Part shown: piece after piece, positions 30,767 to 48,006 of the stretch
Layout of the letters: every line of letters begins with the position of its first letter
Position numbering within the stretch: position 1 is the first letter of the stretch
Source of the DNA: Permianibacter sp.
Lineage (GTDB): Bacteria; Pseudomonadota; Gammaproteobacteria; Enterobacterales; Permianibacteraceae
Direction: 5' to 3'
DNA: 59,151 nt
Assembly: GCA_036275115.1 (NCBI GenBank)
Contig: DASUEK010000060.1
Location: forward strand, 1 to 59,151
Program-made: the position numbers and the translations under genes
The notes under the pieces: generated by a model
What the model was told of the DNA's origin: nothing
The model's database searches: none
What the model saw: only the letters and a program-made list of their open reading frames with translations

Positions 30767-31120
<354 letters not shown>

Positions 31121-31331
31121 CTCCCGTTCCGGGTGATTTCTACTCGCCGTCATTGACGCTAGATGAGCCGGCAGACCGGTTCGACGTCGCCTACCTGACA
31201 CGGCGCCATTTCTTCCGACATCATATTTTTCTGCCGCCACTGAGACAGTGATCGCTCGTGTTGGCGTGTTTCACCGTTGTATTTTTGGTGCTGCCGCGGC
31301 ATCGTAGCGACCCTTCTTTTTTGTCTTTCTG

Positions 31332-31745
31332 ATGGCGATGGAACTGCACAGCTATCTCGCCGGGTTGCCGGCTTTCCTGTCCTATTTTGCCGTGGCGGTC
31401 GCGCTGACCCTGGTGTTCTGTCTCGGTTACACCTGGCTGACGCCGCATCGGGAATGGTCCTTGATTCGTCAGGGTGTGCCGGCCGCTTCGGTGGCGTTTT
31501 CCGGCAGCCTGCTTGGTTTTGTCCTGCCGCTGGCAAGTGCGATTGCCCATTCCGTCAATTTGCTCGATTGCCTGTTGTGGGGCGCGGTGGCATTGCTGGT
31601 GCAGTGGCTGGTGTTCTTGGCCTTGCGACTGGTGCTACGCGATCTGTCGACCCGTATCGCCAACAATGATTTGGCTGCCGCGACCTTGGTGGCGGTCATG
31701 TCGCTTGCCATCGGGATCCTCAACGCCGCTTGCATGGTCTGGTGA
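31332..31745 (+). CDS. DUF350 (YjfL-like) membrane protein
   Basis: YTWLTPHREWSLIRQG motif, four TM helices, GILNAACM end. Confidence 0.88.
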   Translation: MAMELHSYLAGLPAFLSYFAVAVALTLVFCLGYTWLTPHREWSLIRQGVPAASVAFSGSLLGFVLPLASAIAHSVNLLDCLLWGAVALLVQWLVFLALRLVLRDLSTRIANNDLAAATLVAVMSLAIGILNAACMVW

Positions 31746-31750
31746 TCGCG

Positions 31751-32323
31751 ATGGCAGACAAGCCGATGAAGCGCAGCCGCAAAGCCAGTTTGGTGTTGAT
31801 GGGGACGGTGCCGTTCCTGCTTGCCGCCTGCGAGAACAGTGAGCGGGCCTTGGTCTATCGCACCGTCTCGGAATGCCAGCGTGATCAGGTGTTGACGTCA
31901 GAAGAGTGTGAAACCCGCTTTACCCGCGCCGGTTACGAAAGCGAGCGGGTGGCACCGCGTTATCGCACTCAACAGGATTGCGAGGCCGATTTTGGTCCGC
32001 AGCAGTGTCAGTCCAGCAGCGGCTATTTCATTCCGTTGATGCGTGGCGTGCTGGTCAAGGATCCGCGGCCGGCGCCGGATGAAGACGAACAGAGCGGTGC
32101 CGGTGGTGGTGGCGGAGGCGGAGGTTACTACTCCAGCGTCGCCCAGCCATTGTACGAATCGCGCGATGACAAAGGCGTGTTGCGCACGCCCGACAATGAC
32201 AAAGTCAGCCGGTTGTCTGGTCCGGTCGAGGTCAAAGAGTCGTATCTGCAGGCCAAGCCGACCGCGCGCGTGGTCAGCCGTGGCGGCTTTGGTCGTGCTG
32301 CGGCTGCACGCGCCGGAGGCTGA
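31751..32323 (+). CDS. DUF1190 (YgiB-like) lipoprotein
   Basis: MKRSR, lipobox LAAC, APRY...DCEADFG..QC, SRGGFG. Confidence 0.88.
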   Translation: MADKPMKRSRKASLVLMGTVPFLLAACENSERALVYRTVSECQRDQVLTSEECETRFTRAGYESERVAPRYRTQQDCEADFGPQQCQSSSGYFIPLMRGVLVKDPRPAPDEDEQSGAGGGGGGGGYYSSVAQPLYESRDDKGVLRTPDNDKVSRLSGPVEVKESYLQAKPTARVVSRGGFGRAAAARAGG

Positions 32324-32326
32324 TTC

Positions 32327-33481
32327 ATGCAGCGCATGCGGAGCGTCGAGCGGCCCGGTTGGCGTCAGCTCGCGGAGCAGCTCGGTTTTGGATTTCACAC
32401 CATGTATGGCGCGCCGTACTGGGATGAAACCGCGTACTACCAATTTACGCTGGCGCAGATTGAGCGGGATCTGGAAGCGCCAACCGAAGCCATACACCAG
32501 ATGGCGATGGCCTTGGTGGAAGAGGCCGTGCGCGATGAGGCGCTGCTGATCCAGTTGGGCATTCCGTCGGCGCATTGGGATCTGCTGCGCGAGAGTTGGC
32601 AGCGGCGCGATCCGGCGATGTATGCGCGGCTCGATCTCGCCTACGACGGCCATGGCCCGGCCAAACTCTACGAACTGAATTACGACACGCCGACCTCGCT
32701 GTATGAGAGCGCGTTCTTTCAGTGGGTCTGGCTGGAACAGATGCAGCGCGCCGGTGCGCTGCCAGCCGCCGCCGATCAATTCAATTCGATTCAGGATCGG
32801 CTTGAAGCGTTCTTTGCCGAGACCGCACTGCGCTTGCCGGTGCATTTTGCCGCGATTGGCGACAATGAAGAGGATTGTGGCACCGTCGCGTATTTGCGCG
32901 ACATTGCTACCCAGGCGCGCTGTCCAAACCGGTTTTTGCCCATCGAGCAGATTGGCGTCGACAGTGACGGCCAGTTTGTCGATGAGCAAGACGAGCGCAT
33001 TGCCACGCTGTTCAAGCTGTACCCGTGGGAAGATCTGTTGCAGGAACCGTTTGCGGAGCACCTGCATCAGTCGCAAACGCGCTTTATCGAGCCGCCATGG
33101 AAACTGATTCTCAGCAACAAGGCGGCGCTGGCCTTGCTCTGGCAGCGGCATCCCGGTCATCCGAATTTGTTGCCGACTTACTTTGATGAGGCCAGCTCAA
33201 CCTTGCCCGCTGGCTGGGTGCGCAAACCGTTCTTTTCCCGTGAAGGGGCCAATGTTCAGGCGCATCTGCCGGATGGCCGCTTGCTGCAGGTTGACGGCCC
33301 GTATGGCCATTATCCGTGCATCCGGCAGGCATGGCATCCGGCGCCGTGTTTCGATGGCAACTACACCGTGCTTGGCAGTTGGCTGGTCGGCGATGTTGCG
33401 TGCGGCATCGGGATCCGCGAAGACGCCTCCCACATCACCCAGGATTTGTCGCGGTTTTTGCCGCACATCATTCTGGATTGA
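32327..33481 (+). CDS. glutathionylspermidine synthase-like ATP-grasp protein (YgiC/YjfC)
   Basis: YWDE, RLDL, ELNYDTPTSLYE, FKLYPWE, SNKA and KPFFSREGAN. Confidence 0.93.
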   Translation: MQRMRSVERPGWRQLAEQLGFGFHTMYGAPYWDETAYYQFTLAQIERDLEAPTEAIHQMAMALVEEAVRDEALLIQLGIPSAHWDLLRESWQRRDPAMYARLDLAYDGHGPAKLYELNYDTPTSLYESAFFQWVWLEQMQRAGALPAAADQFNSIQDRLEAFFAETALRLPVHFAAIGDNEEDCGTVAYLRDIATQARCPNRFLPIEQIGVDSDGQFVDEQDERIATLFKLYPWEDLLQEPFAEHLHQSQTRFIEPPWKLILSNKAALALLWQRHPGHPNLLPTYFDEASSTLPAGWVRKPFFSREGANVQAHLPDGRLLQVDGPYGHYPCIRQAWHPAPCFDGNYTVLGSWLVGDVACGIGIREDASHITQDLSRFLPHIILD

Positions 33482-33542: not shown

Positions 33543-34073
33543 TCAATTCGCCATATACAACGGGTACAAATCCCGTTCTTCCCGTTCGATGCGACGCAGC
33601 AGCGCTTCGGCGATCTCGTTGGATTCCTGGGCGAATTTCTGAATGGTCAGCGGCGACATCGGGTCGTCCATGTAACGGTTGCAGAAATGCACCACCGCCC
33701 GGCTGATGGAATTCATCTCGCGGCGAAAATCGCGGATCAATTCCAGATTGGTTTCATCCTTGGCCAGTGACTGCTCAAGGTAAACGTAGAACTTGACGTT
33801 TTCCTTGATGATGTGGCCCTGAAACTCGGTTTTGAAGGCTTGCAGCCGCGAGCGAAAGTTACGGACGTCGTGATTGCGCAGCAGCGGCATCAGCGAAGTG
33901 AATTGATTGACCAGCTGGACGTGGTCCTGCTTCAGCATGGCGATCAACTGACCGTCGTACGGAATGCCGGCATCGGGTTTGTTGGTGACCGGCGTCGGGG
34001 CTGGTGTTGCGCTGTCCGGCGTTGGCGTTTCAGCGAGTTTGCGTTCCCCAAACAACGAAAATAAACGCGCCAC
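33543..34073 (-). CDS. hemerythrin-like (HHE) domain protein
   Basis: LKQDH, HIIKE...FY and RIEREERDLYP pattern; GTG start. Confidence 0.75.
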   Translation of the reverse strand: MARLFSLFGERKLAETPTPDSATPAPTPVTNKPDAGIPYDGQLIAMLKQDHVQLVNQFTSLMPLLRNHDVRNFRSRLQAFKTEFQGHIIKENVKFYVYLEQSLAKDETNLELIRDFRREMNSISRAVVHFCNRYMDDPMSPLTIQKFAQESNEIAEALLRRIEREERDLYPLYMAN

Positions 34074-34384
34074 AGGATGGATCTCCTCAATCGGCCCGTT
34101 CTGTGCCGGGGCCGAGTTTCTTGTGCTTGTGGAAGAAAGGAACGGTGTCTGAGCGCGTGCCCGTTCCCTCTACAGGCGCGCTGCTGCTCGACCGTTCCCA
34201 TTGCGCGGCATCCTGCTGCGGCACCCGAAATCCGTCTTGTCAGTGGGGTGCAATGCTGCCAGTATAAATAAAACATATGTACCAGTTTGTATCGCTTTGT
34301 ACGAGCGTGCAGCGGTTCACATCCGGCCCGCCGGGCTTCAGGAATACCGGGCGGCTGATAACAGGCTGTCGCCGTGAGGGGAAC

Positions 34385-36403
34385 ATGGCTGACTTGAGCG
34401 CAGTGCGGGGGCTGTCGGAGCCCAATCCACAGGATGCCGCGTGGCGGTTGCTGGCAGACGAATTGAAGGCCTTGCAGCCGGCGCCCGTCGCTGCCGGGCT
34501 GGGTGCTTGCGAAGCTGCGTCGGTGCTGGTGGTGGGCGCCGGACCGAGTGCCCAGGCGTTGGTCCGGTTGTTGGCGCGACAGGCACCGACGCGCGACGTG
34601 CTGATGCTCAATGGCGAACGCTTTGTCCCCTATAACCGGGCCCAGATCAGTTCGACCCTGGCCGATGGGCGACCGCTGCAACGACTGGCGGCGTTTCCGC
34701 CGACAGCCGCCGATCTCGCGCCCAAGATCCTGCACGATGCCCGTGTTGTCGCGATCGACCGCGTGGCGCGCAGCGTGCGACTGCACGATGACCGCGTGAT
34801 CCGCTACGAGACGCTGGTGCTCGCCACCGGCGCGCGCTCGCGCCGGCTGCCGCCGCTGGATATCCGTCATCCGCGGTTGCGGGATTTTCGCTGTCTGGAT
34901 GATCTGCAAGTGCTTACCGAGCTGAAGCCGCGTCAGGTTGTGGTGGTTGGCGGCGGGCTCTTGGGCATCGAAGCTGCACGGGCAATGCAGGCCCGCTGTG
35001 AGCAGATCACGGTGCTGGAACGGTTTCCGCATCTCTTGCCACGCCAGCTCGATCAAGAGGCTGCGAGTCGCGTTGCTGAGCAGCTGGGCGAGCAGGGCGT
35101 CACGGTAATGTGCGATCGCAAGATCGCCAGCCTCGCATGCGAACCTGCGGCGCTGACCCTGACGCTGGACGATGGCAGTGCGCTGCGCGCGGATTTGCTG
35201 ATATCCGCCACCGGTGTCGAGCCCGAGATCCGGTTGGCGGCTGACGCGGGCTTGGCGGTTGATCGCGGTGTGATTGTCGATGCCAATTTTCGCACCAGTG
35301 ATGAACACATTTACGCGATCGGCGAATGCTGCGAGCAGGCCGGGCAGACGGTCGGCAGCCTGGCGCCCTGCCTGCATCATGCCGAGCAGCTGAGTGCGTT
35401 GCTGACCGGTCAAGCCGCGGTATCGCCCGCCGCCAGCAACGTGTTCCAGCTGAAACTGGCCGAACGCACAATTGTCAGCATCGGCAATACCCGCGCGATC
35501 GATCAGCGCATGCACGCGTACAGTGGACCGGAGCAGTCGTATCGCCGGATTTTCCTCATTGATCAGCGGGTGGTCGGCGCCATTCTTTACGATCGCGCCA
35601 ACACCGACATTTCTGCGTTCAGCACCGCTGTGGCCGAGCAGCGTTTGCTGACGGCAAATGAGCTTCAGGCGTTTGGCCAATCCGGTCAATTGCCAGAAAC
35701 CGGAAGCGACGGTACCCAGCAAATCATCTGCTTTTGCGCCAATGTCAGCCGTGGCCGTCTGCTCGAGCTGCAACAGCAAGGGCTGACCCGTGCGCGCATC
35801 ATCGCTTGCACTGGCGCCAGTCAGCACTGCGGTTCCTGTGCCGGCCGTATCGAACACGTGTTGGGCGGCACCGCTTCCCGTTACAACACTCGAATGACCG
35901 TCGCTGCCGTGGCTTCGGTACTGCTGCTTGGCATTGCGCTGCTGCTGGGCTGGCAGACGCCATTGGCCAGCAGCTGGCTGTCGGCTTACCGGCAAATCGA
36001 TTGGCTGTGGCGTGACCCGGTTGCGCGCCAAATCACCGGATATGTCCTGCTGCTGGTGGCGCTGCTCAGTTTTGTCTGGGGCTATTGGCGACGGGTGCAG
36101 CGTTTGCACGAACGCGCGCAAAAAGCGCGCCTCGGCACCCACGCGTTGACCGCGGCAGTGGCCCTCATGTTGTGGTGGGTACACACCGGTGGCCGTGTCG
36201 GCCATGGCCTCAATCGCGGGTTGTTGTTGGCGATGCTGCTCGTCGCCATCACCGGCGCATTGGCAGGCGCCGCGTGGTTGCAAGCGGCGCAATCGGCATG
36301 GCAGCGGCGCGTAGCGACGGGACTGCGCGTGCTGCACTGGTTTGCGTTGTTGCCGATTCCTGCCTTGCTGCTGTTTCACATTGTCAAAACCTACTACTAC
36401 TGA
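34385..36403 (+). CDS. fusion: NirB-type FAD/NAD(P)H oxidoreductase + BFD-like [2Fe-2S] + di-heme-b membrane domain
   Basis: VVGAG, LVLATGA, VVGGGLLGIEAA and IYAIGEC; CFC...CGSC; about 5 TM helices with two H-x13-H pairs; RBS GAGGGG. Confidence 0.85.
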   Translation: MADLSAVRGLSEPNPQDAAWRLLADELKALQPAPVAAGLGACEAASVLVVGAGPSAQALVRLLARQAPTRDVLMLNGERFVPYNRAQISSTLADGRPLQRLAAFPPTAADLAPKILHDARVVAIDRVARSVRLHDDRVIRYETLVLATGARSRRLPPLDIRHPRLRDFRCLDDLQVLTELKPRQVVVVGGGLLGIEAARAMQARCEQITVLERFPHLLPRQLDQEAASRVAEQLGEQGVTVMCDRKIASLACEPAALTLTLDDGSALRADLLISATGVEPEIRLAADAGLAVDRGVIVDANFRTSDEHIYAIGECCEQAGQTVGSLAPCLHHAEQLSALLTGQAAVSPAASNVFQLKLAERTIVSIGNTRAIDQRMHAYSGPEQSYRRIFLIDQRVVGAILYDRANTDISAFSTAVAEQRLLTANELQAFGQSGQLPETGSDGTQQIICFCANVSRGRLLELQQQGLTRARIIACTGASQHCGSCAGRIEHVLGGTASRYNTRMTVAAVASVLLLGIALLLGWQTPLASSWLSAYRQIDWLWRDPVARQITGYVLLLVALLSFVWGYWRRVQRLHERAQKARLGTHALTAAVALMLWWVHTGGRVGHGLNRGLLLAMLLVAITGALAGAAWLQAAQSAWQRRVATGLRVLHWFALLPIPALLLFHIVKTYYY

Positions 36404-36411
36404 CTCTGCCG

Positions 36412-37719
36412 ATGCGATTCCTCTCCGTTGTGCTTTTTTCGCTCGCCACCGTGGTCGGTGGTGCGGTGCTGGCGTGGCAGCTGCTCGGCGACGATCAGCG
36501 AGTCTTCCAGCCGGGCGAGCTCAGCTACGCCCATCACCAACTGGAGCTCGCTTGTGCCAGCTGCCATGACGACGCGTTTTCCGGCAATGCCGGCATCGAG
36601 CAACGCTGCCTCGGTTGCCATCAGGCCGATATGAAAGCGATCGGTGATGCCCACGGCCCGAAAAAGTTCGCCGATCCGCGCAACGCTGGTGAGCTGGAGC
36701 GACTGGATGCGTCACGTTGCCTCAGCTGCCATCGCGAGCATGTGCCGGAACAGACGCATGCCATGCAGGTGACTCAACCGAAAGATTTTTGCATGGCTTG
36801 TCATGCTGATATCGCAACGACACGAGCCAGTCACCAAGCGGTGGCCGGTGACAGCTGCACCAATGCCGGTTGCCATAATTACCACGACAACAGCACCTTG
36901 TATGAAGCGTTTCTGAACGCACACCAACACGAGCCGGCGCTACTGCCACATCCGCAAAAACGGCCGCGTCATGTTGCGATGGCGGCGATGTTGACGCCCG
37001 ATTGGCAAACGCTGTGGTCGAATCCGGCTGCCATGCCGGCGATCAAGTTGGCGGAGCAGGACTGGGCACAATCGGCACATGCCAAGGGCCACGCCAATTG
37101 CAGCGATTGCCACCAGCGCGAGAACCCGAATGAGGTTGCGATGACGGTGTGTGCCGACTGCCATGACGATGAATGGCAAGCGCTGCAGAAAGGCCATCAC
37201 GGCATGCGGCTGGCTGTCGGGTTGGCGCCGATGTCGGTATCGGATGCCAGGCTGCCGATGCATGCTGATGCCGCCGACAACGCCGTGAGCTGCAACAGCT
37301 GCCACAGCCCGCACCGTTATGACACGAGCAAAGCGGAAGCGGAGAGCTGTCTTGGCTGTCATGCCGATGAGCACAGCCGCAACTGGCCGCAGTCGACGCA
37401 CGGCCAACGCTGGCAGCAGGATCCGGCCACGGGCGTCAGTTGCGCCGGTTGTCATATGCCGCGCGAACCGCACCCGGATAATTCATCGCAGTGGGTCCAA
37501 CACAATCAAAGCGCCAATCTGCGGCCGAACGACAAGATGCTGAAACAGGTTTGCATGCGTTGCCATGGCTTGGAATACGCGCTGTCAGCGCTGGCCGATC
37601 GCGATGTAATCAAAAGCAACTTCAGCAGGCCGGCATCCGGCCAGCACGACAGCATGGAATGGCTGCGGCAACAGGCCAGACAAAACCAATCCGGCGTGGC
37701 CACGCCAGCATCGGAATAA
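36412..37719 (+). CDS. multiheme cytochrome c (10 CxxCH + 1 Cx4CH)
   Basis: N-terminal hydrophobic helix; CASCH, CLGCH, CLSCH, CMACH, CTNAGCH, CSDCH, CADCH, CNSCH, CLGCH, CAGCH, CMRCH. Confidence 0.92.
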   Translation: MRFLSVVLFSLATVVGGAVLAWQLLGDDQRVFQPGELSYAHHQLELACASCHDDAFSGNAGIEQRCLGCHQADMKAIGDAHGPKKFADPRNAGELERLDASRCLSCHREHVPEQTHAMQVTQPKDFCMACHADIATTRASHQAVAGDSCTNAGCHNYHDNSTLYEAFLNAHQHEPALLPHPQKRPRHVAMAAMLTPDWQTLWSNPAAMPAIKLAEQDWAQSAHAKGHANCSDCHQRENPNEVAMTVCADCHDDEWQALQKGHHGMRLAVGLAPMSVSDARLPMHADAADNAVSCNSCHSPHRYDTSKAEAESCLGCHADEHSRNWPQSTHGQRWQQDPATGVSCAGCHMPREPHPDNSSQWVQHNQSANLRPNDKMLKQVCMRCHGLEYALSALADRDVIKSNFSRPASGQHDSMEWLRQQARQNQSGVATPASE

Positions 37720-37780
37720 CGCAGGAGTAGAGCGCTGAGCACAGCGCGTGTTGACAACACATCATGACGAGGGAACAAGC

Positions 37781-38338
37781 ATGAAAAAGAGATGGGGATG
37801 GTCGCTGTTGGTGGTGATGCTCGCAGGCTGTGGCAAAGCGCCAGAGCCGCAAGGGATCAGTCCGCAGCGGATGACCGATACCATACACACCATTCTGGAA
37901 GCCGACCGGACCGTGTACACCCAACAGGTGGTCAATCGGCTAACGTTGGACGAGAAAGTGATCAAGGCCAGCGAACATTGGCGGGAAGACAAGGCACTGG
38001 TCTTGCCGGCGCAGATGTTCCGAATGGGGGCTGAACTGGTCAATGAAAAAGATCTCGGCATGTCCTATGCGCTGATTTCGGAATGGGCGATCAACAAGAA
38101 AAATCTGCCGCGTACCGATGGCGAGCGCAGCGGCATGCAGGCACTGATTCAGAACCCTGCGCAGCCGTATTACACCGAGGAGGAACTGGGCGGCAAACGC
38201 TACTTCACTGCCGTTTACCCGGACAAGGCGATCGCCGAAGCCTGCGTACAGTGCCATAACGACCACAAGGATTCGCCACGCAAGGACTTCAAGAAAGGCG
38301 AGGTGATGGGCGCCGTGGTGATTCGGCTGGCGCTTTAA
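37781..38338 (+). CDS. DUF3365/Tll0287-like monoheme c lipoprotein
   Basis: Lipobox LAGC; LPAQM; C-terminal ACVQCH...FKKGEVMGAVVI. Confidence 0.85.
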   Translation: MKKRWGWSLLVVMLAGCGKAPEPQGISPQRMTDTIHTILEADRTVYTQQVVNRLTLDEKVIKASEHWREDKALVLPAQMFRMGAELVNEKDLGMSYALISEWAINKKNLPRTDGERSGMQALIQNPAQPYYTEEELGGKRYFTAVYPDKAIAEACVQCHNDHKDSPRKDFKKGEVMGAVVIRLAL

Positions 38339-38357: not shown

Positions 38358-38394
38358 AACAGCAAGCGACCCCGCCATGGGGTCGCTTGCTGTT
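38358..38394. terminator. terminator hairpin between the redox operon and katG
   Basis: Perfect 16-bp stem AACAGCAAGCGACCCC-gccat-GGGGTCGCTTGCTGTT. Confidence 0.8.
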
Positions 38395-40776: not shown

Positions 40777-41324
40777 TCATGCCTGCATAAGCAAGATAGT
40801 CGCTACAACAGATGTGACGCTGCAGGAGCACTCCGCAGCGTTGCTGCTAGTACCCACTCACGCAGCATGCACAGCAAAGCAGGCCCGCTGTTTCGTTATG
40901 ACCATTACAATGCGGATACAGTTCGATACGCGTTTCTGCAGGGTGAATGTGGTTTGCCAGAACTGTGAGCCCTGTCGTCACTGAACTTTCGGAATCGGCT
41001 TGACGAACATTGTCCGCTGATCTTCAATAACAGCGTCCTGTTGTGCGCCGTCAGTTGTCAGGGATGTGATAGAAGTGCCGGCGCGCTGCCTCATCCCTTG
41101 TTTGCAGTTCCCCCCACGGCTGTTCGCTGCCTCAACAATCGAGGCGGTGCGGGTTTCTTTGTCGATCGATTTTGTAGTCTTCACACGGGTTTTGACGTGT
41201 GAAGCGGGGAGCTTTTGCCTGCAGATTTTGCGTGTCGTGCGCGGAAGGGATTGACCGCGCCGGCTGGCGCACGATGGCGGCAGGCAAAGCAGGCGCAGAC
41301 CAAGGGCACGAGGATGCAGCAGGG

Positions 41325-41894
41325 ATGCTGGATGTCACGCTGAAATTTTTGCAGCAGCAGCTGAATGCCTACTTGCTGGTCCGCACCGGTAGCGACTTCG
41401 GCGCGGTCGAAATGTGTCAGCCGATAGACGACACCGGCAAATGGGCCGTGAAAGAAGATGTCCTCGGGCTGTCACTGATCAATATCGAGGAAGAGCGCAT
41501 CCTGCGTTCCCAGCTGCCCGAAACCACCTATCTGAATGGCCAGAACATTCTGTTGCAACCGCCGCTACGGCTCAATTTGCACCTGCTGTTTCTCGCCCGG
41601 TTCAAGCAATACGATCAGGCATTGCGCCAACTTTCCCATGTTCTGACGTTCTTTCAAAGCCACTTGCTGTTCACCCCGGAGCAGCATCCGGGGCTAGATC
41701 CACGTATTGAAAAGCTGACTTTGGAACTGCAGTCACCGAACTACGAGCAGCTAAACCAGATCTGGGCGTTTCTCGGCGGCAAACAGCTGCCATCCGTGTT
41801 GTACCGGGCCCGAATGGTGATCTTGCAAGACGCTGAAACGGCGGCCATTCAGCCGCCGTTGACTGCCATCGATCTGGCGTTTCGGCAACCATGA
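41325..41894 (+). CDS. eCIS cap/tail terminator, DUF4255 (Afp16/Pvc16-like)
   Basis: LSLINIEEE, PPLRLNLHLLF and LNQIWAFLGGKQLPSVLYRAR. Confidence 0.9.
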   Translation: MLDVTLKFLQQQLNAYLLVRTGSDFGAVEMCQPIDDTGKWAVKEDVLGLSLINIEEERILRSQLPETTYLNGQNILLQPPLRLNLHLLFLARFKQYDQALRQLSHVLTFFQSHLLFTPEQHPGLDPRIEKLTLELQSPNYEQLNQIWAFLGGKQLPSVLYRARMVILQDAETAAIQPPLTAIDLAFRQP

Positions 41895-42910
41895 GCACGC
41901 GCTTTTCGACTCTGCTGCAGCTCGATATCCAGCACGAGTTTTACGGTGGTGGCTGTCCGGACTTTGGCTTGATACTGCCGGCTGACAGCCAGCGCCTGCT
42001 GCAGCGCGGCCGCTTGCTGCTCAAAGCACGCGACAACCGTTGGCATCTGCTTTATGAACAGGATCACGATGGCGAGCCGTTGGCGATGCTGGCCGAGCAG
42101 ACGCTGCGGATAGGTCTGCAGCTGCTGAATCCCTATTTCGACAATTTCACCGGCGAAAGTCTGGCGTTGGCGGGCGAGGTACCGGTTTATCGCAACCGTG
42201 TCACACCGGATGCATTGGCGGCGCCAGTGCGGATGCCGCTGTGTTCCGGCTTTTATCGGCATGTCATCGCGCAGCCGCAACGACCGGTGACGCTGCAGCT
42301 GCGCCGGCCGGGTGCCGAGCTTTTGCACAGTATCACTATTACTGCTGCCGACGACCGGCCGTCGTTTGCATTTGATTTGCGTGAGCTGCCGGCCGGCGAA
42401 TACTGGATTGAAGAGCATTATCCGGGCGATGTGGTCACCCAGACCGCTATCTATGCCGATGCCGAACTCTGCCAGCAGGCGGTAGCTGCGGTGCTGGAAC
42501 TGCGCCTTGATGCGACGTTTTACGAAACGGCGCCAGTGCTGACTCTGCAGTTCTCGGCCAAACAGCAGGCGTTGCGTTTCTATCTGGTTGTGCGCAATTA
42601 CAGTGATGCCGAGTTTGCCCAGCTCAGTGTCAGCGATCACGGCTTTGTTGAAGACGGTCGCAGCGAGATTCTGTTCCAGCGGATCGCATCGGCCAGCTTC
42701 GGCGCAGAAGAGATACCTGCTGAGCTGTTGGCGCGGGAGGGCGAACGGGTGGTGCTGTTTCGGTCACAAGTGGCGGTCGGCCGACAAGCACGACCGCGCC
42801 GCAAGCTGCAGTTGCGGCGCAATGGCGACATCCTGATTGAACACCTGCCACAACCGGGCCCGGACAGTGCCAAAGCCGAGCAGATCGTGCTGGTTGGCAA
42901 GCCGGGATAA
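41891..42910 (+). CDS. eCIS accessory protein (position of cap adaptor Alg16B-like genes)
   Basis: IQHEFY, LLNPYFDNFT and LIEHLPQP; between DUF4255 and sheath; ATGA overlap. Confidence 0.65.
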   Translation: MSTRFSTLLQLDIQHEFYGGGCPDFGLILPADSQRLLQRGRLLLKARDNRWHLLYEQDHDGEPLAMLAEQTLRIGLQLLNPYFDNFTGESLALAGEVPVYRNRVTPDALAAPVRMPLCSGFYRHVIAQPQRPVTLQLRRPGAELLHSITITAADDRPSFAFDLRELPAGEYWIEEHYPGDVVTQTAIYADAELCQQAVAAVLELRLDATFYETAPVLTLQFSAKQQALRFYLVVRNYSDAEFAQLSVSDHGFVEDGRSEILFQRIASASFGAEEIPAELLAREGERVVLFRSQVAVGRQARPRRKLQLRRNGDILIEHLPQPGPDSAKAEQIVLVGKPG

Positions 42911-43004
42911 GTTTTCCGAAAGATTTTGTTGCAGAAAGGTATCACGCGCGGCAAGACGCCGCGTAATACGCAGTTTGGTTTCAACAAGCCCAAGGAGCCG
43001 AGCA

Positions 43005-44417
43005 ATGGCCACCTATAAAACACCGAACGTTTACGTCGAAGAGATCCCGGTATTCCCGCCGTCGGTGGCGGAGGTGGGAACGGCCATTCCGGCATTCATT
43101 GGCTACACCCAGAAGGCGGCCCGCAATACCGCCAACGATCTGCATTTGAAGCCAACCAAGATCTATTCGCTGAAAGAGTATGAAGCGTTATTTGGCCTGC
43201 CCAAAGAAGAGGATCTCGCCATCAGCGTCACCGATCTTGGCGCGGGAGCATACAGCATCAATAGCGTTACCCTGCCGAGCTTGTCCTATCTGCTGTATTA
43301 CAGCGTCAAGTTGTATTTCGATAACGGTGGCAGCCAGTGTTACATCGTGTCCGTTGGTTACTATCAAACCCCGGCGGTGGTCGATCTGACCGGCGACGGC
43401 ACCACGGCGCCGGCCACCGGTTTTGGTTTGCAGGATGGGTTGGATGTGGTGGCGTTGGAGGACGAGCCGACCCTGCTGGTGATTCCCGAGGCGGTCAAGC
43501 TCGGTACCGCCGACTACACGACCCTGGTACAAGCCATGCTCGGGCAGTGCGACAAGCTGCGCGATCGGTTTTGCATTTTCGATATTCGTGATGGCGGGAT
43601 CGCTCTGGACAGTGCCGGGCTGCTGGCCAACCGCGGCTACTTCGGCAACAACTATCTCAAATACGGCGCTGCCTATTATCCGTTTATCAAGTCGACCTTG
43701 AATTACTACATCAATGCCAGTGAGGCCAACGTCGATGTCACGGTAGGGGCCAACGCGCCGGCCGAGCTCCAGTCGTTCAAGACCAGCAACACGGCCTTAT
43801 ACAACTTTGTCAAAACTGCATTGAAGGAACACTTCATCGTCTTGCCACCGAGCGGTGCGGTCGCCGGCGTGTATGCGGCAACCGATGCCAATCGTGGCGT
43901 CTGGAAAGCCCCCGCCAACGTCAGCCTTGCCGATGTCATTGAACCGGTAGTCCGGCTCGATAACCTCAAGCAGGATGATCTGAATGTCGATGCCACCACG
44001 GGCAAGTCGATCAATGCGATTCGCGCTTTCGCCGGCAAAGGTACGCTGGTTTGGGGCGCCCGCACCCTGGCCGGCAATGACAATGAGTGGCGCTATGTTT
44101 CAGTCCGGCGTTTTTTCAATATGGTGGAAGAATCGATCAAGAAATCGACCTATTGGGCAGTATTCGAGAACAACGACTCGAATACCTGGGTCAAGGTCCG
44201 CGGCATGATCGAGAACTACCTGATCGACAAATGGCGCGAAGGCGCCTTGGCTGGCGCCACACCGAAAGACGCTTTCTTCGTCAAGTGCGGTCTCGGTGTC
44301 ACGATGAATGCCCAGGACATTCTCGAGGGTCGGATGAACGTCGAGATCGGTATGGCAGTGGTGCGGCCGGCTGAATTCATCATTCTGAAGTTCTCGCACA
44401 AGCTGCAGACCTCATGA
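43005..44417 (+). CDS. eCIS contractile sheath protein
   Basis: YKTPNVYVEE, RGVWKAPAN, VWGARTL, WRYVSVRR and VRPAEFI; RBS AAGGAG. Confidence 0.96.
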   Translation: MATYKTPNVYVEEIPVFPPSVAEVGTAIPAFIGYTQKAARNTANDLHLKPTKIYSLKEYEALFGLPKEEDLAISVTDLGAGAYSINSVTLPSLSYLLYYSVKLYFDNGGSQCYIVSVGYYQTPAVVDLTGDGTTAPATGFGLQDGLDVVALEDEPTLLVIPEAVKLGTADYTTLVQAMLGQCDKLRDRFCIFDIRDGGIALDSAGLLANRGYFGNNYLKYGAAYYPFIKSTLNYYINASEANVDVTVGANAPAELQSFKTSNTALYNFVKTALKEHFIVLPPSGAVAGVYAATDANRGVWKAPANVSLADVIEPVVRLDNLKQDDLNVDATTGKSINAIRAFAGKGTLVWGARTLAGNDNEWRYVSVRRFFNMVEESIKKSTYWAVFENNDSNTWVKVRGMIENYLIDKWREGALAGATPKDAFFVKCGLGVTMNAQDILEGRMNVEIGMAVVRPAEFIILKFSHKLQTS

Positions 44418-44476
44418 CCATCGCAGCGTCTACGATACTCGAGATATCCATTCATTGATTCAGGAGGTTTTGCATC

Positions 44477-44911
44477 ATGCCTACTCCCTATCCGCTGCCG
44501 ACATTTCACTTCACTGTTGAGTGGGGTGGTAAACGGGTCGGCTTCTCCGAAGTAACCGGGTTGACCCAAGAAAATCAGGCCATCGAGTATCGCGATGGGT
44601 CGTTCCCGGAGTACTCGTCCATCAAGATGCCGGGCTTGCGCAAATTCAGCAACGTTACCCTGAAGCGCGGCATCATCAAGGGCGATAACGATTTCTTCAA
44701 ATGGCTCAGTACCGTCAAGCTCAACACCGTTGAGCGGCGCAATCTCGTGATCAGCTTGTTGAATGAAGAACATCAGCCGGTCATGGTGTGGAAGGTGATG
44801 AATGCATTTCCGGTCAAGGTGGAAGGGCCGGCGCTGAAGGCCTCGGCCAACGAGGTGGCAATCGAGTCGGTGGAGCTGGCGCACGAAGGTCTCGAACTGC
44901 AAAACGAGTAA
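44477..44911 (+). CDS. eCIS inner tube protein (T4 gp19-like, Afp1)
   Basis: YPLPTFHF, FSEVTGL, IEYRDG, KMPG, TLKRG and EVAIESVELAHEG. Confidence 0.94.
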   Translation: MPTPYPLPTFHFTVEWGGKRVGFSEVTGLTQENQAIEYRDGSFPEYSSIKMPGLRKFSNVTLKRGIIKGDNDFFKWLSTVKLNTVERRNLVISLLNEEHQPVMVWKVMNAFPVKVEGPALKASANEVAIESVELAHEGLELQNE

Positions 44912-44914
44912 GCG

Positions 44915-45361
44915 ATGGCGAGCTACTACCCGCCGGTTGGCTTCCATTTCAAGGTGGAGGTGTCCGGTTTGCCCACCGACAGCAATGACGTCCGGTTTTC
45001 GGAGGTCAGTGGCTTGGCGGTGGAGTTGGCGACCGAGGAAATCGCGGAAGGCGGTGAGAACCGTTTTCTGCAGAAGTACCCGACGCGGGTCAAGTACCCG
45101 GAGCTGGTCCTGAAACGCGGCCTGCTGCTGAAGTCGGATTTGTGGGACTGGATCCGAAACAATCTGGAGAAGGATGTGCTGGAACCGCGTGACATGACCA
45201 TCAAACTGTTGAATGAGCAGCATGAGCCGCTGCTGACCTGGAATGTGGTCAAGGCGTATCCGACCAAGTGGTCGATTAGCGATCTCAGTGCCAGCAATAA
45301 CAGCATCGTGGTTGAGAGCCTGCAGTTTTATTACCAGTACTTCAGCCAGATCCGCAGTTGA
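44915..45361 (+). CDS. eCIS second tube protein (Afp5-like)
   Basis: YPPVGFHF, FSEVSGL, EGGENRF, LVLKRG and AYPTKW. Confidence 0.92.
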   Translation: MASYYPPVGFHFKVEVSGLPTDSNDVRFSEVSGLAVELATEEIAEGGENRFLQKYPTRVKYPELVLKRGLLLKSDLWDWIRNNLEKDVLEPRDMTIKLLNEQHEPLLTWNVVKAYPTKWSISDLSASNNSIVVESLQFYYQYFSQIRS

Positions 45362-45405
45362 GGCAGAGCTTGTTGAGGCGGGCAGGGGTGGATGGGAGCT
45401 AGGCG

Positions 45406-45567
45406 ATGCCAATCATTGTTGATGAAGTGGTGATCTCGGTTGAGGTCAGCAATCAGGCTGCTGGCGGGGCCGCCAGTGCGCCGGATGCCACCCAGGACAA
45501 ACAGGCTGTGATTGCGGAATGTGTCGAGCGCGTGCTGGAAATTCTCGAACAACGACAAGAGCGTTGA
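45406..45567 (+). CDS. small eCIS protein, DUF5908-like (plug/Afp6 position); absent from the ORF track
   Basis: Hand-translated 53 aa: MPIIVDEVVISVEVSNQ...VIAECVERVLEILEQRQER; GGAG upstream; fills the gap between tube and LysM genes. Confidence 0.85.
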   Translation: MPIIVDEVVISVEVSNQAAGGAASAPDATQDKQAVIAECVERVLEILEQRQER

Positions 45568-45570
45568 ACC

Positions 45571-46245
45571 ATGTCTGAACGGGGCGAACTGGAGAAAATC
45601 CGGATAAAGGCTTACGAACAGCCGGATTGCAGCGGCACTGAGGTCGGTGAGTTCACGGCATATGTGAACCCGAATGAGATCACGCTGGCCTATGAAATGG
45701 AATACGACGCTGGTCAAGGCTCAGGCACCACCAATAGCCGGATGGAATTCAAAAAGGTCAAGCCCGGTGATATGTCGTTGACGTTTTTCATCGACGGTAC
45801 CGGAGCCAATGGCGTGGTCGTTGATGTCCAGACCGAGGTCGACAAGTTCCAGACAGTCACCGGCTACAACGGCAACATCCACCGACCCAATTACCTGAAA
45901 GTGGTGTGGGGGACGTTGCAGGTCAAGCGCTGCATCCTGAAGAGCGCGTCGATCGCCTACAAAATGTTCAAGCCGAACGGCGTGCCGCTCCGCGCCGTGA
46001 TCACGGCGAGCTTTACGGACAGTGTGGACGATCAGACCCGGGTTGCACTGGCGCAGGACTCATCACCGGATTTGACCCATGTGCGCCAAGTCAAGGCGGG
46101 CGACAACCTGCCGTCGCTCTGTTACCAGATCTATGGTGATCCGAGCTTGTTTCGGCAAGTCGCGGAGGCCAATGGGCTCGATCATTTTCGCGAGTTGAAA
46201 GCCGGCAGCCGGATCTTCTTTCCACCGCTGCAGAAATCGACGTGA
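45571..46245 (+). CDS. eCIS tube initiator with LysM domain (Afp7-like)
   Basis: YVNPNE, HRPNYL...W, PLRA; C-terminal LysM VKAGDNLPSLCYQIYGD...VAEANGL. Confidence 0.9.
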   Translation: MSERGELEKIRIKAYEQPDCSGTEVGEFTAYVNPNEITLAYEMEYDAGQGSGTTNSRMEFKKVKPGDMSLTFFIDGTGANGVVVDVQTEVDKFQTVTGYNGNIHRPNYLKVVWGTLQVKRCILKSASIAYKMFKPNGVPLRAVITASFTDSVDDQTRVALAQDSSPDLTHVRQVKAGDNLPSLCYQIYGDPSLFRQVAEANGLDHFRELKAGSRIFFPPLQKST

Positions 46246-46263
46246 TGTCGTCAGGACTGCACC

Positions 46264-48006
46264 ATGAGTGAAGCACGCACCCTGCCCGTTGCTGCCGAAC
46301 ACCGCGAGTTCACCATCAAGGTCGCGGGTGAAGCGGTTGCTCGCGAGCACCAATTGCTGGCGGTGTCGGTACGCTGTGCGGTCAATAGCATCAGCGCGGC
46401 ACGGCTGGTGTATCAGGACGGTGCCGCCAGCAGCAGTGATTTTCCGCTCAGCAATACCGCACTGTTCGTGCCCGGTGCGGAAGTCGAGGTGCTGGCCGGC
46501 TCGAGTGGCGATCCGGCGTCGATCTTCAAGGGCATTGTGGTGCAGCAATCGCTGAAGGTGCGTGAGCAAAGCCCACCACAGCTGGTTATCGAGTGCCGGC
46601 ACAAAGCCAGCAAGCTGACTGTCGGCCGGCGCAATGCTTGTTATTTTGATCAGAAAGACAGCGATGTGATCAGCGAACGGCTTTCTGCGGCTGGCATCAG
46701 TGCCGATGTCGAAGCGACGGCAGTCAGTCATGAGCAACTGGTGCAGTACCGGGCGACCGACTGGGATTTTCTGCTGACCCGCGCCGAGGCCAATGGCAAG
46801 CTGGTGCTGACCGAAGGCGACACCGTGAAGGTGTTGGCGCCAGCGCTGTCGGGTCAACCGGCGTGCACGCTGCAGTTCGGCGCAACCGTGCTGGAATTTG
46901 ACGGTGAGATCGACAGTCGCTTGCAGTTTGCCGCCGTGAAAAGCCAGAGCTGGGACCCGGCGCAACAGGCGCTGCTGGAATGCGAGGCCGAAGCACCTGC
47001 CGTCGATGGCCCGGGTAATTACAACCATGACGATCTGGCCGCCGTGGTAGGGCTGGATGCCTGCCGTCTGCAACATGCCGCGCTGACTGAAGACGAGGCA
47101 CAGCATTGGGCCAATGCCCAATGGCAAAAGGCGCGGATCAGCAAAGTGAATGGTCGCGTCAAATGCCAAGGTATTGGCACCGTCAAGCCGGGACAGGTGG
47201 TGACACTTGCTGGCGTTGGTGATCGCTTCAATGGCGATGTCTTTGTCACCGGTGTTCGCCACGATTTTGATTTGGTTCAGGGGTGGAAAACGCATATCCA
47301 GTTCGGCAATTTGCAGCACGCGTTTGCCGAACAGAAAGCCGTTTCGGCGACGCCGGCAGCGGCGCTTTTGCCGGTTGCCAAGGGCTTGCAGATTGGCGTC
47401 GTGGTCAGCAACGAGGATCCGGAAGGTGAGCATCGGGTCCGGGTGCGGCTGCCGTTGGTTGATACCGACCAGGACGGCATCTGGGCGCGCGTGGCCAATC
47501 TCGATGCTGGCAGCGAGCGTGGTTTTTTCTTCCGGCCGGAAATTGGCGATGAAGTGGTGCTGGGTTTTCTCGAGGAAGATCCGCGCCAGGCCATCCTGCT
47601 GGGCATGCTGCATAGCAGTGCCCATCCCGCGCCGCTGGAAGGCAGTGATGCCAATCACGAGAAGTGCATTCAAAGCCGGGAAAAATTGTTGCTGTCCTTC
47701 AACGACGAGAAAAAAGTGCTCCAACTCGAGACGCCAGCCGGCAATGTCCTGGCGCTGGATGAGGACAAGCAGACGGTCAGCCTGACTGACCAGCACGGCA
47801 ACAAGATCGAGCTCAGCAAAGACGGTATCAAGATTGAGAGCATCAAGGCCATTGAATTGAAAGCGGCGACCGAGTGCAAGTTTGAGTCCGGTACCGGCTT
47901 TTCGGCCAAGGGTGGTACCGAGATGAAACTGGAAGGCGCGGTCAGCGCAGAGCTGTCGAGCGCCGCCACCACCACCATCAAGGGCGGTATCTTGCAATTG
48001 AATTGA
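46264..48006 (+). CDS. eCIS spike, VgrG-like (Afp8)
   Basis: LVQYRATDWDFLLTRAEANG; gp5 OB-fold DPEGEHRVRV...FFRPEIGDEVVLGF; beta-helix tail. Confidence 0.93.
   Translation: MSEARTLPVAAEHREFTIKVAGEAVAREHQLLAVSVRCAVNSISAARLVYQDGAASSSDFPLSNTALFVPGAEVEVLAGSSGDPASIFKGIVVQQSLKVREQSPPQLVIECRHKASKLTVGRRNACYFDQKDSDVISERLSAAGISADVEATAVSHEQLVQYRATDWDFLLTRAEANGKLVLTEGDTVKVLAPALSGQPACTLQFGATVLEFDGEIDSRLQFAAVKSQSWDPAQQALLECEAEAPAVDGPGNYNHDDLAAVVGLDACRLQHAALTEDEAQHWANAQWQKARISKVNGRVKCQGIGTVKPGQVVTLAGVGDRFNGDVFVTGVRHDFDLVQGWKTHIQFGNLQHAFAEQKAVSATPAAALLPVAKGLQIGVVVSNEDPEGEHRVRVRLPLVDTDQDGIWARVANLDAGSERGFFFRPEIGDEVVLGFLEEDPRQAILLGMLHSSAHPAPLEGSDANHEKCIQSREKLLLSFNDEKKVLQLETPAGNVLALDEDKQTVSLTDQHGNKIELSKDGIKIESIKAIELKAATECKFESGTGFSAKGGTEMKLEGAVSAELSSAATTTIKGGILQLN

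Follow-up and report, generated by a model that had tools for sequence, protein, structure and literature searches.

Organization and Conservation of the Locus

The 59,151-nucleotide stretch of DNA analyzed here in full (below, the window) is contig DASUEK010000060.1 of a Permianibacter sp. assembly (GCA_036275115.1), read on the forward strand from position 1 to 59,151. It carries a trio of genes coding for a fusion of a flavin- and NAD(P)H-binding reductase with an iron-sulfur (FeS) motif and a membrane cytochrome b-like domain, an 11-heme cytochrome c, and a monoheme lipoprotein. Judging from the predicted cofactor sites and topology, we consider it probable that these proteins form a chain that takes electrons from cytoplasmic reduced nicotinamide adenine dinucleotide (NADH) through the inner membrane and delivers them to periplasmic hemes. 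The principal features are as follows.

33543..34073, minus strand: hemerythrin-like gene, divergent from the trio (176 amino acids; PF01814 match)
34074..34384, no strand: divergent promoter region between the hemerythrin-like gene and gene 1
34385..36403, plus strand: gene 1, flavo-FeS-cytochrome b fusion (672 amino acids; flavin adenine dinucleotide [FAD]/NAD(P)H reductase, BFD-type Cys set, five helices)
36412..37719, plus strand: gene 2, 11-heme cytochrome c (435 amino acids; N-terminal membrane anchor; 11 heme motifs)
37781..38338, plus strand: gene 3, Tll0287-like (DUF3365, sCache_heme) monoheme lipoprotein (185 amino acids; PF11845 match)
38358..38394, plus strand: intrinsic terminator-like hairpin (17 pairs, T-tail), separating the operon from the convergent catalase-peroxidase gene (katG)

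An initial annotation, made from the letters of the window, had described a co-oriented trio, its genes set 8 and 61 bp apart, closed by a strong hairpin, and the open reading frames, gaps, and hairpin are all as it described them. Terminator-like matches in the window are at chance level overall (6 versus 5.8 in shuffles), but this hairpin stands out, the remaining five having only 5 to 7 pairs; an Rfam scan of the window gave sub-threshold terminator-like matches only. Against a congeneric genome (G003), the ratios of nonsynonymous to synonymous substitution rates (dN/dS) are 0.14, 0.075, and 0.027 for genes 1, 2, and 3 and 0.084 for the hemerythrin-like gene, and all four are thus under purifying selection. 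The one RNA run found (X20) gave two short contigs (33578-33758 and 34285-34470), which do not amount to evidence of transcription.

Relatives of the 11-heme cytochrome are numerous, with 1,847 at E ≤ 1e-20 among 7,998 candidates scored. The loci counted below are the best 80 of at least 421 confirmed stretches from a GTDB scan; since they are the best matches and clustered by kinship, the counts overstate their independence. The complete trio is present in 76 of the 80, in lineages labeled as eight phyla, which bears out the conservation on which the initial annotation had staked its proposal. Of the four incomplete cases, two (L074 and L086) stop at contig edges and two (L039 and L046) have no lipoprotein in the DNA examined. 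Among 400 other genomes sampled by phylum, 2 have the module, as do 4 of 8 congeners. It is therefore rare and patchy, and spread over at least eight phyla. No plasmid match was obtained in a search of sequence collections. The earlier statement that no complex of this architecture has been characterized agrees with a full-text literature search, in which no description of the operon was found; most subscription papers and bioRxiv supplements lie outside the scope of that search.

Some loci show unusual arrangements. In L043 (693-10045), the trio is present in two tandem copies with a truncated globin between them and the same sigma-54-like site before each copy. In L035 (1742-9982), the flavo-membrane gene is separated from the cytochrome by an inserted two-component pair; a second, more distant hemerythrin-like gene follows. 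For L125/L129 (G222:C3), one search report shows the cytochrome match with two TAA stops, and tblastn aligns residues 4-424.

A NirB-Derived Flavoprotein Fused to a Membrane Cytochrome b-Like Domain

Gene 1 contains two features on which its reading depends.

35729..35839, plus strand: BFD-like motif C449-x-C451 ... C482-x2-C485, present in 72/72 homologues
35888..36397, plus strand: five-helix membrane domain (helices from the AlphaFold model; H586+H651 and H600+H665 are predicted heme b pairs)

The N-terminal part matches Pyr_redox_2 at E 4.6e-47 in a profile search and shares with NirB both the FAD/NAD(P)H domain and the first BFD domain. The match to the NirB model (TIGR02374) covers positions 4-470 of 794 and stops there, scoring 229 bits where the cut-off is 578; the siroheme/[4Fe-4S] C-terminal domain of NirB is absent, its place being taken by the five-helix, four-His membrane domain. 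The original view of a NirB-like N terminus that does not belong to a NirBD nitrite reductase is thus borne out. A fold search with the whole model gives Z scores of 36-38 to ferredoxin and rubredoxin reductases, the matches being filled by the flavin domain, whose fold is like that of the NorW/rubredoxin-reductase type diaphorases. In such folds, an acidic residue after the second Rossmann motif usually favors NADH; by this rule, E212, which occupies that position and is present in the family consensus, suggests NADH as the donor. The BFD-like Cys set that had been proposed as a [2Fe-2S] site holds at the level of the four Cys, all of them present in every homologue, but not at the level of the profile, where Fer2_BFD scores 21.1, below its cut-off of 26.

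The His pairs noted earlier in the membrane domain, H586/H600 and H651/H665, each 14 residues apart, are invariant in the 72 full-length homologues; in the model (mean predicted local distance difference test [pLDDT] score of 88.9, five membrane helices) they lie on two helices and span the membrane. Averaged over 63 sequences, Lys and Arg number 5.8 in the loop 567-583 and 4.1 in the loop 631-649, against 0.6 in the loop 601-610 and 0.25 at the C terminus. Together with the model helices, these charges predict an N-in topology, with the heme b of H586/H651 near the cytoplasm and that of H600/H665 near the periplasm. The flavin and the c-type proteins, which have an N-terminal anchor or a lipobox, are thus predicted to lie on opposite sides of the membrane, in line with the initial annotation. 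The ferric-reductase-like type of domain that it had listed for a profile scan is not borne out: Ferric_reduct (PF01794) has no match to the window protein and, among 63 members, a single weak one (E 0.029). The weak matches are instead to cytochrome b561-type families (DUF4405 in 26 of 63 members and Ni_hydr_CYTB in 17 of 63, at E ≤ 0.1), neither of which matches the window's own protein in a profile search. A sequence search found no solved relative of the domain, and the matches in an Atlas search with it are all under 0.9.

In 3 of the 80 loci (L060, 7475-7996; L053, 1716-2390; L039, 2788-3438), a membrane domain without the flavin part precedes the cytochrome. The L060 gene stands in a nitrate-assimilation cluster in a chromosome-level record, and the single TIGR02374 match of that genome is a full NirB. 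In L046 (4065-7979), about 600 low-complexity residues are inserted between the BFD and membrane domains of the flavo-membrane gene, and there is no lipoprotein nearby.

The b561-type resemblance and the three membrane-only genes can also be accommodated by a scheme in which the membrane hemes trade electrons with quinone or quinol, the quinol pool feeds the periplasmic part, and the flavin part mainly reduces the globin or hemerythrin that accompanies the trio (see below). Along the same lines, another genome (G004) has a second hemerythrin-like and flavo-FeS-membrane pair (L130, 5607-10504; G004:C6) without an adjoining cytochrome or lipoprotein, and MsrQ, a membrane cytochrome of comparable role, binds ubiquinone (PMC12525009). 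Nevertheless, by far the most loci keep the fusion, the two His pairs that a full transmembrane path would need are invariant, and the ubiquinone of MsrQ has been proposed as an acceptor rather than a donor (PMC12525009). We regard coupling to quinones as quite improbable; the quinone-free wiring put forward in the initial annotation is at present a hypothesis.

An Eleven-Heme Cytochrome with an HAO-Like C-Half

The cytochrome encoded by gene 2 has the 11 heme c motifs originally counted, 10 of the form CxxCH and one CX4CH, both in the window and in 74/74 aligned sequences. Its model (pLDDT 88.3) has two halves: the five-heme N-half is weakly like small tetraheme cytochrome, and the six-heme C-half is like the hydroxylamine oxidoreductase (HAO) family.

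37000..37632, plus strand: HAO-like half, residues 197-407 (equivalents of hemes 2, 3, 5, 6, 7, and 8; fold and profile match)
37366..37374, plus strand: D319-x-H321, at the presumed position of the HAO His/Asp pair (invariant in 74/74 sequences)

The relationship of residues 197-407 to the HAO family is recovered with Foldseek at E 7.8e-4, by VIA-align against 4n4j with a Z score of 7.8 (middling alone), a root mean square deviation of 3.2 Å, and 188 aligned residues, and by hhalign of the cytochrome profile against 15 PF13447 proteins with a probability of 98.9 and E 2.5e-17. Hemes 6-11 of the cytochrome align with HAO hemes 2, 3, 5, 6, 7, and 8. With the HAO family of octaheme cytochromes (KsHAO, 4n4j; NeHAO; Kustc0458, 6h5l; the Ignicoccus protein, 4qo5), it therefore shares the C-half fold, the heme order, and the His after heme 6. 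It differs from them in having five extra N-terminal hemes and in lacking the heme 4 motif and the C-terminal helical bundle with the cross-linking Tyr, the region of HAO trimerization; its tail after the last heme is 38-86 residues long, against 154-183 in HAO-family proteins. The heme 4 motif, ten residues before heme 5, is present in 15/15 HAO-family proteins, whereas this segment has no Cys in any of the 74 cytochromes. Heme 4 is the active site of HAO (PMC8042395, PMC8840924, PMC6469936). The CxxCK active-site motif of NrfA and ONR is likewise found in none of the 74; NrfA clades of CxxCH type exist (PMC8840924), and the heme equivalent to the NrfA active-site heme is absent altogether from the cytochrome. 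No PF13447 match was found in the window's own genome.

Twelve non-motif His are conserved at ≥ 90% for the 11 hemes, so that all the hemes can be bis-His ligated with one His to spare; going by the ligation pattern of HAO, we take the spare one to be H321. Invariant K85, M265, and M376 leave other ligation schemes possible. H321 aligns with the His after heme 6 in all 15 HAO-family proteins, and the position of D319/H321 is, we assume, that of the active-site His/Asp pair of HAO. The spacing of the Asp differs, the motif being CxxCH-x-D-x-H in 74/74 cytochromes against CxxCH-x-G-V-D-H in 3 HAO proteins. A conserved His/Asp pair has been named in the HAO active site (PMC6469936). With heme 4 and the C-terminal bundle missing, the 11-heme protein is likely a bis-His wire derived from the HAO fold, with a vacant site, and not a complete enzyme on its own. 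The initial description of a periplasmic multiheme enzyme thus gives way to a wire-like protein that has lost the catalytic heme motif throughout the 74 sequences. A family of compact HAO-like octaheme proteins (L091-L102), with several copies in each genome of a distant lineage, has CxxCH-S-G-P-P-H after heme 6 (His but no Asp).

A Tll0287-Like Lipoprotein as a Possible Periplasmic Partner

Gene 3 codes for the monoheme DUF3365 lipoprotein that had been annotated. It matches PF11845 (formerly DUF3365) at E 2.9e-19 and 70.4 bits against a cut-off of 24.1, and has one CxxCH (C155/C158/H159) and a LAG-C lipobox. The lipobox Cys and those of the heme motif are its only Cys, and the Cys ligand of Tll0287 is thus absent. 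M79, 80 residues before the proximal His, is present in 76 of 79 lipoproteins, Q78 in 97%, and many other polar residues are invariant. From its conservation and spacing, we infer that M79 is a candidate labile distal ligand of the heme. The GSU0582 and GSU0935 sensors of Geobacter offer a parallel, with a similarly conserved Met about 80 residues before the proximal His, ligation by Met60 and His143/144, and displacement of the Met by nitric oxide (NO) (PMC8396549). Binding of NO is known for sCache_heme family members (10.64898/2026.02.01.703092; PMC8396549); one signaling member is a tight NO binder, and a stand-alone member, which binds NO weakly, behaves in a redox-like manner, its potential being +123 mV (10.64898/2026.02.01.703092). 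The window lipoprotein has the PF11845 domain, the CxxCH, and the stand-alone build of the Tll0287/sCache_heme cluster delineated in that work, and differs in having no Cys distal ligand, in being lipid anchored, and in being tied to a redox operon; the main text of 10.64898/2026.02.01.703092 makes no mention of a redox operon or neighborhood of sCache_heme. The lipoprotein alone has no match in the search of sequence collections, and its profile aligns with 5b82 at E 1.5 only.

Multimer structure prediction, which the initial annotation had suggested, lends weak support to a complex of the cytochrome and the lipoprotein. The pair of cytochrome and lipoprotein scores 0.48 against 0.00 for the best control, the runs agree in ≥ 87% of contacts, and the partner pLDDT is ≥ 82. 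Of 157 solved pairs, 116 reached the mark, as did 2 of 215 mismatched ones; those that reached it with a score of ≤ 0.60 are just 18 of the solved pairs, and both of the mismatches. Were the lipoprotein to dock so as to supply the missing heme 4 in trans, facing the Asp and His of the cytochrome, the two would make a composite HAO-type site, and the module would be an NADH-driven, quinone-free periplasmic reductase of NO, nitrite, or hydroxylamine. We consider this version clearly unlikely.

At the other extreme, the module could have no chemistry of its own and act as a redox valve, passing surplus electrons from NADH to a periplasmic cytochrome c pool (the lipoprotein and cytochrome c5) that feeds separate oxidases or NO and nitrite reductases. 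A cytochrome without the catalytic heme motif would suit such a role, as would the carrier-like properties of the stand-alone sCache_heme protein (10.64898/2026.02.01.703092), the presence of cytochrome c5 in 26 of the 80 loci, and that of NirK and three COX1-family frames in the window's own genome. However, c5 occurs in none of the 10 loci of the hemerythrin type, to which the window belongs, and a mere carrier would not seem to need an invariant D319/H321 in the cytochrome or so many invariant polar residues in the lipoprotein. We hold the valve to be unlikely, though likelier than the other alternatives considered here.

A Predicted Cytoplasmic Companion: Globin or Hemerythrin-Like Protein

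The trio is accompanied by a fourth gene coding for a putative cytoplasmic metalloprotein in 62 of the 80 loci: a globin in 44, a truncated globin in 8, and a hemerythrin-like protein in 10, never two kinds together. A shuffle test of this exclusivity (0 of 20,000) ignores kinship and so overstates it. Among proteins with usable starts, hydrophobic N termini are found in 0/28 globins, 0/8 truncated globins, and 0/6 hemerythrins, against 22/24 c5 proteins. When 74 cytochromes are placed on a tree made by a quick method, those of the hemerythrin type form one side of a branch with a Shimodaira-Hasegawa-like approximate likelihood ratio (SH-aLRT) support of 90, and the truncated globin type needs three changes.

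The hemerythrin-like gene, which had been singled out as a flanking gene, does go with the module: both in the window and in each of the 4 trio-bearing congeners, it is the divergent neighbor of the trio, and trio and companion occur at different genome positions in congeners. On this evidence of linkage, we take it to be the fourth member of the module in the lineage of the window. Its product matches PF01814 at 42.6 bits against a cut-off of 25.3 (Atlas, 0.96), with a reduced ligand set in which H51, H87, and E91 are kept and an Arg stands where the last His is expected; across 12 neighboring sequences aligned with it, only H51 and H87 are conserved. A sequence search found no solved relative. 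A faint match of the window protein to Rsd_AlgQ (E 0.012) is a lead to a regulatory role. In L123 (4465-6219; G000:C309), and also in L131 (G001), a hemerythrin-like paralogue is divergent from a DUF3050/heme-oxygenase-like gene. The second hemerythrin-like and flavo-membrane pair of G004 is followed by a GAF-PAS-GGDEF gene, and may be either a remnant or a rewired module. In the six-gene form of L128 (6507-12622; G210), the flavo-membrane protein, cytochrome, lipoprotein, c5, and truncated globin are joined by a 2Fe-2S/FAD/NAD reductase; this truncated globin with its own reductase looks like a split flavohemoglobin.

The convergent catalase-peroxidase gene, held in the initial annotation to fit a stress role, is near the module in only 1 of the 80 loci and in 2 of 5 fetched regions (the two samples overlap among the closest relatives), being absent from the G004, G007, and G031 regions. 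We therefore view katG as a chance neighbor and reject it as a partner of the module. A system for peroxide or sulfur stress working with katG would draw on its position next to the module in the window and two close relatives, and on the link of Tll0287 to sulfide (PMC8396549); with katG this rare and without the Cys ligand of Tll0287 in the lipoprotein, such a role is exceedingly improbable.

Links to Nitrate Assimilation

Nitrate-assimilation genes are present in 33 of the 80 loci. Each label was assigned from a single representative of its cluster; NrtCD and NirA are over cut-off, ANTAR and NMT1_2 over the Pfam cut-off, and NtrB, NarK, NasA-like, and NsrR-like proteins below cut-off. NirA lies within the locus in 7 of the 80, and an NsrR-like Rrf2 gene in 5. 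In 66 loci the 450 bp upstream could be used; 25 of these have a sigma-54 site on the coding strand and 1 has one on the reverse strand, the figures for control windows being 3.1 (random) and 5.7 (GC-matched). A leader word comes after the site in 12 of the 66, compared with 0.77 for random windows, the word having been chosen after seeing the sequences. Further, the Rfam narK RNA scores over gathering upstream of the operon in L048, one of four loci scanned. These signals are those of the scheme combining NtrC/RpoN with NasT antitermination (PMC10783516). FNR and NsrR boxes are not enriched upstream of the operon. Of the two chemistries first put forward, that of nitrogen oxides thus emerges as the best reading at the level of the family, whereas sulfur chemistry finds little in its favor: only CysJ-like and DmsB/C-like genes turn up (8 loci each), and these are inside nitrate-assimilation clusters.

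The promoter region of the window (34074..34384) has no sigma-54 site, no NsrR, FNR, or NtrC match, and no narK-type leader. A direct repeat, TTTGTA-N4-TTTGTA, near 34282-34301 upstream of gene 1, is shared by the window with G002, G003, and G007, and is a possible regulator site. Pattern matches in 11 hemerythrin-type intergenic regions are scattered, in a count made without a shuffle control.

The genome of the window codes for NirB, NasA, and NirK (over cut-off), CcmF, and the three COX1-family frames, and has a frame that we read as qNor-like beside an NsrR-like gene; no PF00042 globin match was found in it, at 85% completeness. Full NirB is kept in 34 of the 50 genomes examined out of the 80, and 16 have no NirB over cut-off; PF01077 matches occur in 8 of 10 among these 16, and may be NirA or CysI. 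As most of these genomes keep NirB, the trio is not in general a replacement nitrite reductase. The idea that it constitutes an alternative, ammonium-forming periplasmic nitrite reductase, assimilatory in function and taking the place of NirBD or NirA, can draw on several observations. Gene 1 is derived from the N-terminal part of NirB, the cytochrome has an HAO/ONR/NrfA-type fold, reductive HAOs are known to reduce nitrite, NO, and hydroxylamine (PMC8042395), nitrate-regulon signals lie upstream in relatives, and there are the 16 NirB-less genomes. Yet NirB persists in the majority, including the genome of the window, NirA stands in some of the loci themselves, none of the 74 cytochromes has CxxCK or heme 4, and one trio-bearing genome (G338) has no NasA-grade gene. 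Thus, we see an assimilatory reductase as very improbable, and return to electron export.

Proposed Mechanism

Working from the motifs, gene linkage, and promoter signals described above, we propose the following route. Electrons would pass from NADH to FAD, the [2Fe-2S] cluster, the inner heme b (H586/H651), and the outer heme b (H600/H665), and thence through the 11-heme wire to the Tll0287-like heme or, in many relatives, to cytochrome c5. The substrate-binding heme would be that of the lipoprotein, with M79 displaceable, and NO or nitrite would be reduced outside the cytoplasm; in the genome of the window, the periplasmic source of NO might be NirK. On the cytoplasmic side, the globin or truncated globin of most relatives, or the degenerate hemerythrin of the window, may handle or sense NO or O2, and could draw electrons from the same flavoprotein. 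The precedent comes from Bradyrhizobium, in which a globin and a flavoprotein detoxify the NO made during nitrate assimilation (PMC4724949). In most lineages the operon appears to be wired into nitrate assimilation; in the hemerythrin-type branch, including the window, which is without nitrate signals, another cue would trigger it. That the electron export serves the disposal of NO or nitrite in the periplasm is, in our estimate, an evenly balanced proposition.

Several observations weigh against this scheme. The genome of the window already has NirB and the qNor-like gene, and in its nas contig the sigma-54 sites and leaders are both upstream of nirB and nrtA. None of the 10 hemerythrin-type loci has nitrate genes, c5, or NsrR, and none of 8 a sigma-54 site. 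G338, of this type, has the trio and neither NirB over cut-off nor a NasA-grade match; conversely, G001 and G006 have NasA and no cytochrome match. There is no fourth gene in 18 of the 80 loci within the DNA examined. Di-iron hemerythrins have a pattern of five His and two carboxylates; the hemerythrin-like protein departs from this O2-binding pattern, several canonical ligands being absent, and its paralogues lie beside unrelated DUF3050 genes. To these may be added the membrane-only forms in 3 of 80 loci, and the weak NO binding and redox-carrier behavior of the stand-alone sCache_heme protein (10.64898/2026.02.01.703092).

Relationship to Known Systems

The closest parallels in logic are NOX, STEAP, and MsrPQ, in which electrons likewise run from cytoplasmic NAD(P)H through a flavin and membrane heme b to a periplasmic acceptor; in MsrPQ, a cytosolic NADH oxidoreductase reduces MsrQ, which serves periplasmic MsrP (PMC12525009). 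The present module differs in that a glutathione-reductase-type flavoprotein with a [2Fe-2S] relay is fused to the membrane part, and in that its acceptors are c-type cytochromes, whereas MsrP is a molybdoenzyme. Going by its domains, then, the module appears to work like the export systems of the NOX/MsrPQ kind, yet it falls outside the NirBD, HAO, NrfA, and ferric-reductase families. The narK-bjgb-flp-nasC cluster of Bradyrhizobium resembles it in pairing a flavoprotein with a single-domain globin, both serving to remove NO and coregulated with nitrate assimilation by NasST; it is without a membrane cytochrome b, multiheme cytochrome, or heme lipoprotein (PMC4724949), and in the window a hemerythrin-like protein and no nitrate signals are found. 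Another parallel is the uncharacterized ptdABCDEFG set from Alphaproteobacteria of oxygen-deficient zones (10.1101/2023.11.21.568154), in which periplasmic multiheme proteins are likewise encoded together with a membrane cytochrome and an FAD/NAD(P) oxidoreductase; there, the penta-, tetra-, and decaheme proteins and a porin come from separate genes, and the operon is analogous but different.

Genomic Surroundings

The module region lies just downstream of a tRNA-Ser(CGA), and the module is found elsewhere in G004 and G007. The tRNA heads a segment (30767-33481, plus strand) that continues with DUF350, DUF1190, and glutathionylspermidine synthase-like genes. On the other side, an extracellular contractile injection system cluster extends from 41199-48006 (plus strand) onward, with Pvc16, a tail sheath, two gp19 tubes, CIS_tube, and a VgrG-like hub/spike; it has a slightly lower G+C content and adjoins the module in G002 and G003 too.

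Implications

Database names for parts of the module include "nitrite reductase large subunit" and "ammonia-forming nitrite reductase," although both catalytic centers are missing, and such labels could inflate calls of nitrite ammonification in metagenomes. Cultured strains suited to its study include Pseudomonas benzenivorans DSM 8628 for the globin type (L048) and Microbulbifer species for the hemerythrin type. If the proposal is correct, the module would link NADH directly to periplasmic c-type cytochromes and add a step to the management of NO and nitrite during nitrate assimilation; it would also provide the stand-alone DUF3365 subfamily with a function, and present a case of an HAO scaffold turned into a wire.

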